A stretch of DNA of 64,000 nt from Escherichia coli (GCF_003334785.1 NZ_QOWV01000009.1), one strand, 5' to 3'; positions 30,998-31,345 are shown, counted from the first letter of the stretch. Made by a program: numbers and translations. The notes: generated from the sequence alone by a model not told the origin.

Positions 30998-31345
30998 TCA
31001 CTTCTTCTTGTTCATCATCGCTTTCAGGTCAGCGAATGGGTTGTACTTCGCTTCACCGACATCTTTCTGCGCATCTTCCCCTGCGATAACGGTCGTACCA
31101 TACTGATCCGCTTCGGTATATTTCGAATGCTCATGATCGTGGCAATAGAGACACAACAATTCCCAGTTACTGCCATCTTCCGGGTTATTGGTATGGTCGT
31201 GATCAATGTGGTGAACGGTAAGTTCACGCAGGTTGGAATAAACAAACTCGCGGGAACAGCGACCGCAGACCCACGGATAGATTTTTAATGCTTTTTCGCG
31301 ATAGCCGCTTTCTAACCGCGCATAGTTTTTTGGGATGATAGCCAT
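30998..31345 (-). CDS. yajD: YajD HNH-nuclease-family protein, function unknown (115 aa)
   Basis: ORF track 115 aa; contains CxxC (WVCGRCSREF), HHIDHDH, N and CLYCHDHEH elements consistent with a zinc-finger HNH fold. Confidence 0.9.
   Translation of the reverse strand: MAIIPKNYARLESGYREKALKIYPWVCGRCSREFVYSNLRELTVHHIDHDHTNNPEDGSNWELLCLYCHDHEHSKYTEADQYGTTVIAGEDAQKDVGEAKYNPFADLKAMMNKKK

Follow-up and report, generated by a model that had tools for sequence, protein, structure and literature searches.

YajD, a strongly constrained stand-alone HNH/His-Me finger protein of Escherichia coli, ends in a conserved C-terminal peptide

The gene yajD, encoded on the minus strand of a 64,000-nt Escherichia coli sequence (GCF_003334785.1 NZ_QOWV01000009.1; the whole stretch is referred to as the window), is a vertically inherited, strongly constrained, stand-alone core gene, and its product is an HNH/His-Me finger protein with a complete set of conserved catalytic and zinc residues. 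The family spans Pseudomonadota and Desulfobacterota-like bacteria, where it is inherited vertically, and yajD is not a defence, toxin, selfish or mobile-element gene. Behind a variable linker the protein ends in a conserved peptide. We read YajD tentatively, at somewhat less than an even chance, as a small cytoplasmic housekeeping HNH nuclease with low affinity for its substrate that is recruited to a partner by this tail. The coding sequence and its parts are as follows.

30998..31345, minus strand: yajD coding sequence, 115 amino acids (aa) plus stop codon (30998–31000), from the open reading frame (ORF) list, DNA identity and an NCBIfam equivalog
31268..31345, minus strand: N-terminal segment, residues 1–26, with a conserved G-Y-R-E-x-A-L-K-x-Y-P-W helix leading into the first zinc knuckle (alignment, AlphaFold)
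31121..31267, minus strand: zinc-finger HNH (beta-beta-alpha-Me) domain, residues 27–75 (profile and predicted fold)
31040..31120, minus strand: linker, residues 76–102, clade-variable, acidic (net −4) and predicted with low confidence (alignment, AlphaFold, charge)
31001..31039, minus strand: conserved C-terminal peptide PFADLKAMMNKKK, residues 103–115 (translation, alignment)

A single ORF with an ATG start occupies 30998..31345, its 115 aa being the longest possible in that frame, and its DNA is 100% identical to the annotated yajD ('HNH nuclease YajD') of complete E. coli genomes. On the NCBIfam equivalog NF008448, 'YajD family HNH nuclease' (cut-off 87 bits), the protein scores 210.3 bits, residues 2–113 corresponding to positions 2–113 of the 113-position profile. 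Pfam HNH (PF01844) is matched by residues 27–75 over model positions 1–47 of 47 (E=1.5e-12). No other significant Pfam domain was found in E. coli YajD, and the homologues listed carry PF01844 as their sole precomputed Pfam domain, or none.

Residue conservation was assessed in a curated alignment of 49 homologues, from which frameshifted or chimeric metagenomic assemblies lacking the tail were left out, and in a wider set of 390 non-identical sequences that includes fragmentary and frameshifted metagenome calls. The core motif of E. coli YajD runs C27-x2-C30; H45-H46-I-D48-H49-D50-H51; N60; C65-x2-C68-H69-D-H71-E-H73. Residues C27, C30, L42, V44, H45, H46, N54, D57, G58, N60, W61, E62, L64, C65, C68, H69 and H73 are invariant in the curated set, which extends down to 36% identity, and the full core pattern is present in all 120 Desulfobacterota-type matches. 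Across the 390 sequences the catalytic and zinc residues (C27, C30, H45, H46, N60, C65, C68, H69, H73) are 94–99% conserved, with H45, H46 and N60 at 99%, H69 at 95% and H73 at 94%, the exceptions being mostly gaps or frameshifted fragments. In the N-terminal segment, conservation in the curated alignment is 90% or more for Y15, R16, L20 and P24.

By analogy with the colicin E9 pattern (H102-H103 ... N118 ... H127 ... H131), whose spacings of 14, 9 and 4 match those of H45-H46 ... N60 ... H69 ... H73 in the Pfam register, H46 is predicted to be the general base, H45, H69 and H73 the metal ligands and N60 the structural asparagine. C27, C30, C65 and C68 form a predicted [CxxC]2 zinc site. H45 and H46, rather than D48–H49, are taken as the catalytic pair because H49 is Gly or Asn in ~9% of homologues.

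An AlphaFold model built from the single sequence had a predicted local distance difference test (pLDDT) score of 37; rebuilt with the 49-sequence alignment, it reached ~90 for residues 11–75. The predicted structure has the beta-beta-alpha-metal fold, with strands at 42–46 and 61–65 followed by a helix at 66–82, the arrangement expected of an HNH protein. The N-terminal segment (net charge +3) forms helices at 8–12 and 15–22 with pLDDT 81–92. Structural matches to the model include the ZRANB3 HNH domain (table value 7.0), Legionella DotN (6.7), EcoKMcrA (6.6), phage GVE2 HNH (6.6) and Geobacter Gme HNH (5.8), and several Cas9, Cap5 and Cascade-HNH domains match likewise. Profiles, residue conservation in both sequence sets and predicted fold thus agree on an HNH/His-Me finger protein, as the initial annotation had proposed from the sequence alone. 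The motif arrangement it had described also holds, with its details amended: the conserved H-x3-H pair after the second CxxC is H69...H73, H71 being Asn in most homologues, and in the 'HH..DH' stretch H45 and H46 are invariant and H49 varies. Loss of the catalytic His and Asn residues among orthologues, named beforehand as the test of a conserved orphan nuclease, was not found.

Residues 24–55 (window ~31181–31276; P-W-V-C-G-R-C-x-R-E-F ... L-T-V-H-H-x-D-H) also gave PDB matches to eukaryotic C2H2 zinc fingers, including Sal-like 4, ZBTB17 and PRDM9, with E down to 1e-4 for the family profile and C-x2-C...H-x3-H in alignment. The resemblance is striking; homology was rejected, the likeness being probably a convergent beta-beta-alpha zinc knuckle together with compositional bias. 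Eight metagenomic 'YajD' proteins (P0047, P0048, P0052, P0059, P0070, P0072, P0081 and P0083) join a non-enteric N-half to an enteric C-half at the near-invariant DGSNWELLCLYCH segment, and many other metagenomic matches have frameshifted tails; the chimeras are presumably assembly artefacts owed to the conserved core. Another sequence, P0128, has ~95 extra N-terminal residues ending in ...LLSPFDPIVWDRERAL, which look like the C-terminus of an upstream gene that a frameshift or an overlooked stop has joined to yajD. The extension is possibly a YcaQ-like DNA glycosylase; should the neighbour be genuine, yajD would have here a rare association with DNA repair.

The linker of ~25 residues differs in length and composition between clades in the curated alignment, and residues 81–100 are predicted with pLDDT 53–63. 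Behind it, the family tail motif P-F-A-x-L-x-x-[LM][LM]-K-x-K ends the protein in all clades, reading PFADLKAMMNKKK in E. coli, PFADLKALLNNRK and PFANLKDLLKKP in other proteobacterial lineages and PFAGLDALLKDKK in Desulfobacterota-type sequences, where it is present in all 60 of the tails listed for the 120 homologues. In the curated set F104 and L107 each reach 90% conservation or more; across the 390 sequences, fragments included, P103 stands at 85%, F104 at 81%, L107 at 83%, [LM]110 at 81% and [LM]111 at 83%. A tail helix is predicted at residues 105–113 (pLDDT ~66–70). AFDB models of near-identical YajD proteins deviate from our model by 6–12 Å root-mean-square deviation over the full length, which is consistent with a tail that would be undocked and flexible rather than stably packed. 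We propose that the tail peptide is a tethered docking element. A membrane-targeting amphipathic helix was judged unlikely, the hydrophobic moment of the tail being 0.13–0.19 against 0.45–0.57 for the MinD and FtsA targeting helices and the Desulfobacterota-type example peptide having no net charge.

In the 49 homologues the HNH core has a median net charge of −5 and the family a median isoelectric point of 6.3, and so acidic a core is unusual for a nucleic-acid enzyme. It fits the idea that YajD is not an enzyme at all and serves as a zinc-binding or His-rich metal-binding adaptor or regulator that uses the HNH fold as a scaffold, as DotN/IcmJ does. A single knockout without phenotype and the His-rich composition of the protein (7 His in 115 residues, with an H-x-H-x-H run) point the same way, and metal binding by the same histidines could account for their conservation. 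However, even distant clades keep H45, H46, N60, H69, H73 and the D57-G58-S59-N60-W61-E62 segment unchanged or almost unchanged, and a scaffold does not normally need a complete active-site constellation. Because that site is kept whole under very strong selection, we favour catalysis and regard a pure scaffold as quite improbable.

Within E. coli, yajD is present in single copy in 5425 of 5426 complete genomes; the remaining genome gave no megablast match, and one match lies on a record labelled as a plasmid. Comparison with E. albertii gave a nonsynonymous rate (dN) of 0.007, a synonymous rate (dS) of 0.53 and a ratio (omega) of 0.014. Between genera dS is saturated and the protein is still 84–96% identical, which argues that the conservation reflects constraint, and recent horizontal transfer was rejected on the same ground. 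Identity falls with taxonomic distance, from 90–96% within Enterobacteriaceae to 83–85% in Yersinia, ~75% in Vibrio and ~65% in Shewanella and Pseudomonas.

Gene neighbourhoods were compared across 80 loci on one-genome-per-species contigs (Enterobacterales, Vibrionales, Alteromonadales, Pseudomonas, Solimonas and Moraxellaceae), in which ORFs were called and all neighbours clustered by BLAST. No conserved neighbour emerged: beyond YajD itself no cluster occurred in more than 22 of the 80 loci, the largest being a generic family at scattered positions, and the immediate neighbours were each confined to a few closely related loci. Among the loci examined, only those of Escherichia, Kluyvera and Pseudocitrobacter have the gene between secF and tsx. 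Elsewhere yajD lies between sapA and pspF (several Enterobacter-like genera) or adjoins yeaC-msrB-gapA (Citrobacter), PhoU (Shewanella), YchF (Rahnella) or PncA (Superficieibacter and Citrobacter); it stands two genes from HPF in Colwellia and Vibrio, and CyaB is also among its unrelated housekeeping neighbours. Intergenic gaps around the gene are mostly 40–400 nt. In loci L006–L044 of our numbering its position shifts between genera of one family, with protein identity at 84–96% and synonymous sites saturated. Seven metagenomic loci likewise yielded no conserved neighbour, and four Desulfobacterota-type relatives on long metagenomic contigs have unrelated neighbours, namely HU, an RRM protein, a HisF-like gene with TenA, and TrkAH.

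Most characterised small HNH proteins belong to conflict systems, so that YajD might be an orphan remnant of one, whether a defence effector, a toxin separated from its immunity gene, or a free-standing homing or terminase-associated HNH endonuclease that was domesticated. Its best sub-family-level profile matches outside the family are ZorE, phage HNH PHROGs (E down to 6e-12, residues 26–84) and IscB, and the variable position of yajD between Enterobacteriaceae genera, its location on megaplasmids in Pantoea and a Vibrio-type copy on IncC resistance plasmids would also suit such an origin. Against this, all of these profile matches cover the generic HNH domain only. PADLOC returned just two ZorE models at 25–27 bits, restricted to the HNH portion (e.g. 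profile positions 213–269 of 282), and no full-length match to the defence models ZorE, Cap5, PtuB or type IV McrA was obtained. By tblastn, none of 50,697 phage records holds a full-length homologue (at least 80% query coverage), the best matches covering residues 27–86 at no more than 51% identity.

Nor did any locus place yajD beside defence-system partners or in a variable island (12 kb on each side in E. coli, the 80 genome loci and the 7 metagenomic loci), and across ~90 loci no partner gene, terminase, intron or defence island adjoins it. The near-universal single copy in E. coli differs from the patchy strain-to-strain distribution of defence genes. Colicin- or pyocin-type features are lacking, since the protein is a stand-alone 115 aa without a delivery domain and no small gene is conserved beside it. 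With an omega of ~0.014, saturated dS and identity that tracks taxonomy, and with the IncC copy being a passenger next to qnr in a Vibrio fragment captured by ISCR1, we consider descent from a conflict system very unlikely.

On plasmids yajD is found mainly in Pantoea (61 plasmid records), where it resides on megaplasmids of 130–780 kb instead of the chromosome, amid ordinary metabolic genes (e.g. Pantoea vagans pPag1, L095), which fits with chromid-like replicons. Several PLSDB records of 1.2–4.9 Mb with yajD, though classed as plasmids, are evidently whole or partial chromosomes. On the Proteus mirabilis IncC plasmid pNDM_FZP3105 (L094, 4229–8433), a Vibrio-type yajD gene is the next gene downstream of one for a Qnr pentapeptide-repeat protein, with an ISCR1 copy on either side of the pair, and plasmids of Providencia and Vibrio furnissii gave a YajD match identical to it in identity, E-value and bit score. 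A qnr homologue (59% Qnr identity) stands directly upstream of yajD on the Vibrio sp. S17_S38 chromosome (L060, 7222–8309). Because this is the only other fetched locus with the adjacency, a Qnr–YajD link was rejected and the pair is read as hitch-hiking of a captured Vibrio fragment, which may point to the source lineage of that qnr allele.

The same extreme constraint for a 115-aa protein (omega ~0.014; ~75% identity between E. coli and Vibrio) is what partners of the ribosome or RNA polymerase typically show, and YajD could be an RNA-directed or ribosome- or RNA polymerase-associated nuclease whose tail docks on or probes the machine while the HNH site cuts RNA. A domain followed by a linker and a short basic terminal helix ending in KKK resembles the tails of ribosome-rescue factors, some beta-beta-alpha-Me nucleases (Serratia, NucA-type) cleave RNA as well as DNA, and translation-related neighbours occur occasionally (YchF in Rahnella, HPF two genes away in Colwellia and Vibrio, the RRM protein on one metagenomic contig). 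These neighbours, however, are not conserved and metabolic ones are equally frequent; the gammaproteobacterial tail has only 3–4 basic residues and the Desulfobacterota-type example peptide a net charge of 0, far below known mRNA-channel probes; and the close structural matches are all DNA-cutting HNH domains except DotN. An RNA-directed function therefore appears unlikely.

Returning to the recruited housekeeping nuclease, the mechanism we propose is that H46 would activate water, H45, H69 and H73 would hold the catalytic divalent metal and N60 would brace the hairpin, with one [CxxC]2 zinc site stabilising the fold. The acidic catalytic core would leave free YajD with little affinity for nucleic acid, and therefore no immunity protein would be needed. 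On its flexible ~25-residue linker the C-terminal peptide would dock on a conserved cellular partner, which would bring YajD to the substrate and possibly activate the nuclease. That substrate would most likely be damaged or stalled chromosomal DNA, where YajD may nick or cut a structure.

The analysis establishes the identity of yajD, its fold class, the conservation of its catalytic and zinc residues, its orphan status, its core-gene behaviour under strong purifying selection and the tail motif; catalytic activity, action on DNA and recruitment by the tail are what we infer. The absence of an inhibitor gene, the acidic core and the absence of a single-mutant phenotype together suggest that YajD alone is nearly inert. 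A latent nuclease recruited by its tail is proposed because domain, linker and terminal peptide make up the classical layout of tethered docking, and because ZRANB3 offers a precedent: an AlkB homologue 2 PCNA-interacting motif (APIM) at its extreme C-terminus, after the HNH domain, binds PCNA, aids recruitment to damaged DNA and is needed for PCNA-stimulated cleavage (PMC5481773). DNA maintenance is a first guess, since nearly all structural relatives cut DNA, HlpB/YisB is tied to repair and Salmonella double mutants (cbpA/yajD and ychN/yajD) are sensitive to H2O2, a weak hint from in vivo work (PMC3878590).

Several points weigh against this reading. Single deletion of yajD in Salmonella had no phenotype in growth, temperature, pH, NaCl, H2O2 or mouse virulence (PMC3878590), and nuclease activity of YajD is not reported in the searchable literature. 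The gene neighbourhood supports no particular pathway. An acidic core could equally fit a substrate other than DNA or a non-enzyme, and the tail helix may have an intramolecular role such as autoinhibition or dimerisation. Compared with patterns for the beta-clamp motif, APIM, the SSB tip, SspB XB and ssrA-like tags, the tail gave 0 matches, so that no partner can be named. A wider form of the proposal, that YajD is the latent catalytic end of an undescribed Proteobacterial housekeeping nucleic-acid pathway and is switched on at a hub by its new tail motif, is possible but doubtful; candidate hubs would include such machines as the replisome clamp, an AAA+ unfoldase, RNA polymerase or the ribosome.

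At the E. coli locus three further elements flank the gene.

31425..31454, minus strand: intrinsic terminator-like hairpin with a 13-pair stem and T-run, just downstream of secF (terminator scan; inverted repeat I2)
30828..30854, strand unspecified: perfect hairpin with an 11-bp stem between the convergent tsx and yajD (plus-strand terminator scan; inverted repeat I1)
31346..31424, minus strand: 5' region of yajD with its presumed own promoter and an AGG Shine-Dalgarno sequence (CAGGTAAC) 8–12 nt upstream of the ATG (read from the sequence)

On one side tsx (plus strand, annotated at 885 nt) ends at window position 30821 and converges with yajD, with yajI beyond it; on the other side lie secF, secD, yajC, tgt and queA, all on the minus strand. 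As judged from the nucleotide sequence, the hairpin at 31425–31454 is predicted to split yajD off from the secDF transcript, and that at 30828–30854 is a candidate bidirectional terminator for tsx and yajD. Term-seq placed an intrinsic terminator, validated in vitro, downstream of yajD (PMC12207403), and RNET-seq found a NusG-suppressed pause site within the gene (PMC10268239). With terminators on both sides and these published transcription data, yajD is a real, expressed gene and most likely monocistronic. A consensus scan of the window detected no strong sigma-70 promoter upstream of yajD; in our own reading, TTGGGA/TACATT may be its weak promoter pair. The 160 nt 5' of yajD were compared in loci L006, L011, L017, L018, L021, L024, L027, L030 and L035, and the blocks GGGAT(A/T)TA, TAACCCTACATTT and ACAGGTAAC (the last just before the ATG) recur in Enterobacterales with differing upstream genes; a promoter or leader thus seems to travel along with yajD.

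Within 12 kb on each side of E. coli yajD only housekeeping genes are found (thiI, xseB, ispA, dxs, ribD, nrdR, malZ, proY, brnQ and others); no restriction, CRISPR or toxin gene is annotated over that distance, and no terminase, intron or intein neighbour at the locus. The statement that yajD stands alone between tsx and secDF is borne out by these neighbours and by its own flanking terminators, and the reported lack of restriction, CRISPR or toxin partners extends from E. coli to the 80 other genomes and the Desulfobacterota-type contigs. The 'housekeeping context' describes E. coli and not the family, because the tsx/secDF position is limited to the three genera named above. That yajD has no assigned function accords with the searchable literature, which holds no functional study of it.

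Two observations concern the intergenic DNA. The tsx–yajD spacer (window 30868–30990) contains palindromic elements resembling repetitive extragenic palindromic (REP) sequences, e.g. GCCGGATGCGGCGTAAACGC and GCCTGATAAGCGTAGCGCATCAGGC, which gave sub-threshold Rfam matches to REP-derived naRNA4 (29 bits against a gathering threshold of 59.5) and ES036 (27 bits against 37.6); because of these elements a 1.4-kb query has a median of 17 match positions in each E. coli genome. In E. coli Dam/Dcm, ET12567 and BH212, window 30500–31900 aligns as two pieces over ~2.2 kb with an IS1A transposase annotated underneath, which indicates an IS1 copy somewhere in the tsx–yajD–secF interval of those strains. 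In the window itself this interval carries no IS1 insertion.

RefSeq, UniProt and NCBIfam already hold the gene under an 'HNH nuclease' label, the sequence evidence holds nothing surprising to a specialist, and the mechanism cannot be fixed by computation. As far as checked, the tail motif, the acidic core, the quantified constraint and the absence of a conserved context have not been described before. Among E. coli genes without known function yajD is set apart by its presence in essentially every genome of the species, and its product is among the most constrained small proteins measured here (omega ~0.014; ~75% identity to Vibrio) and carries a complete nuclease active site without an inhibitor or partner gene. 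A nuclease so conserved yet dispensable in the laboratory probably serves a redundant or condition-specific step in genome or RNA maintenance, and the acidic core suggests how an unguarded nuclease could stay harmless. If the recruitment model is true, bacterial DNA or RNA quality control would gain a new nuclease and, with it, a new short docking motif; otherwise yajD is an ordinary uncharacterised HNH protein. In either case yajD is a sound candidate for functional work, with the active-site residues as one handle and the tail peptide (F104, L107) as another, concrete one for finding the partner of YajD.

Among known systems, E. coli YajD is the type member of family NF008448 (UniProt 'Putative HNH nuclease YajD') and differs from it in nothing; the best 50 AFDB50 matches listed are YajD family proteins, 48 of them so named (Enterobacterales, Vibrionales, Alteromonadales, Pseudomonas, Thiothrix and Magnetococcus). 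The family name records the domain, and the searchable literature connects it with no activity, substrate, partner or phenotype. The sequence search found one solved HNH-type nuclease, T4 endonuclease VII (PDB 1E7D/1EN7; phmmer E=0.008), its other matches being C2H2 zinc fingers and the ClpX zinc domain. The T4 enzyme likewise heads the Foldseek PDB matches and shares H-x-D-H-D-H and the CxxC pairs in register. However, YajD does not match Pfam Endonuclease_7 (PF02945; E=3), endonuclease VII, with 157 aa, resolves junctions as a domain-swapped dimer, and its catalytic D40/H41 aligns, in a weak phmmer match, to D48/H49 of YajD, of which H49 is not invariant in the family. The small zinc-ribbon or zinc-finger HNH nicking enzymes, Geobacter Gme HNH (PDB 4H9D) and phage GVE2 HNH (PDB 5H0O), share ~19% identity with YajD and are not known to have a counterpart of its tail motif. 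Phage HNH nicking enzymes act with terminase beside cos sites, whereas YajD has neither a full-length phage homologue nor a terminase neighbour.

Conceptually nearest is HlpB/YisB of Bacillus, likewise small, conserved and HNH-like, which stands alone outside a defence setting and has a DNA-repair role proposed and partly shown; hlpB is essential unless addAB is also deleted, according to work cited in a review (PMC5714182). YajD falls outside that family (13.4 bits against a cut-off of 130 on NF058586), and yisB adjoins addAB and sbcCD in Bacillus, whereas yajD has no repair genes as conserved neighbours. Legionella DotN/IcmJ has an HNH-like zinc fold and is a non-nuclease adaptor that binds the DotL tail. 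The best structural match is the HNH domain of ZRANB3 (PDB 5MKW), at only 19% identity. Unlike the 115-aa YajD, ZRANB3 has ~1079 aa, among them an SNF2 ATPase, a PIP box and an NZF domain, and its cleavage is ATP-dependent; its HNH face is described as electropositive, whereas the YajD core is acidic; and unlike the ZRANB3 tail, that of YajD fits neither the APIM consensus nor the bacterial clamp-binding consensus. Should YajD be the latent catalytic end of a nucleic-acid pathway, it would be a bacterial counterpart of clamp-recruited HNH cleavage by ZRANB3.

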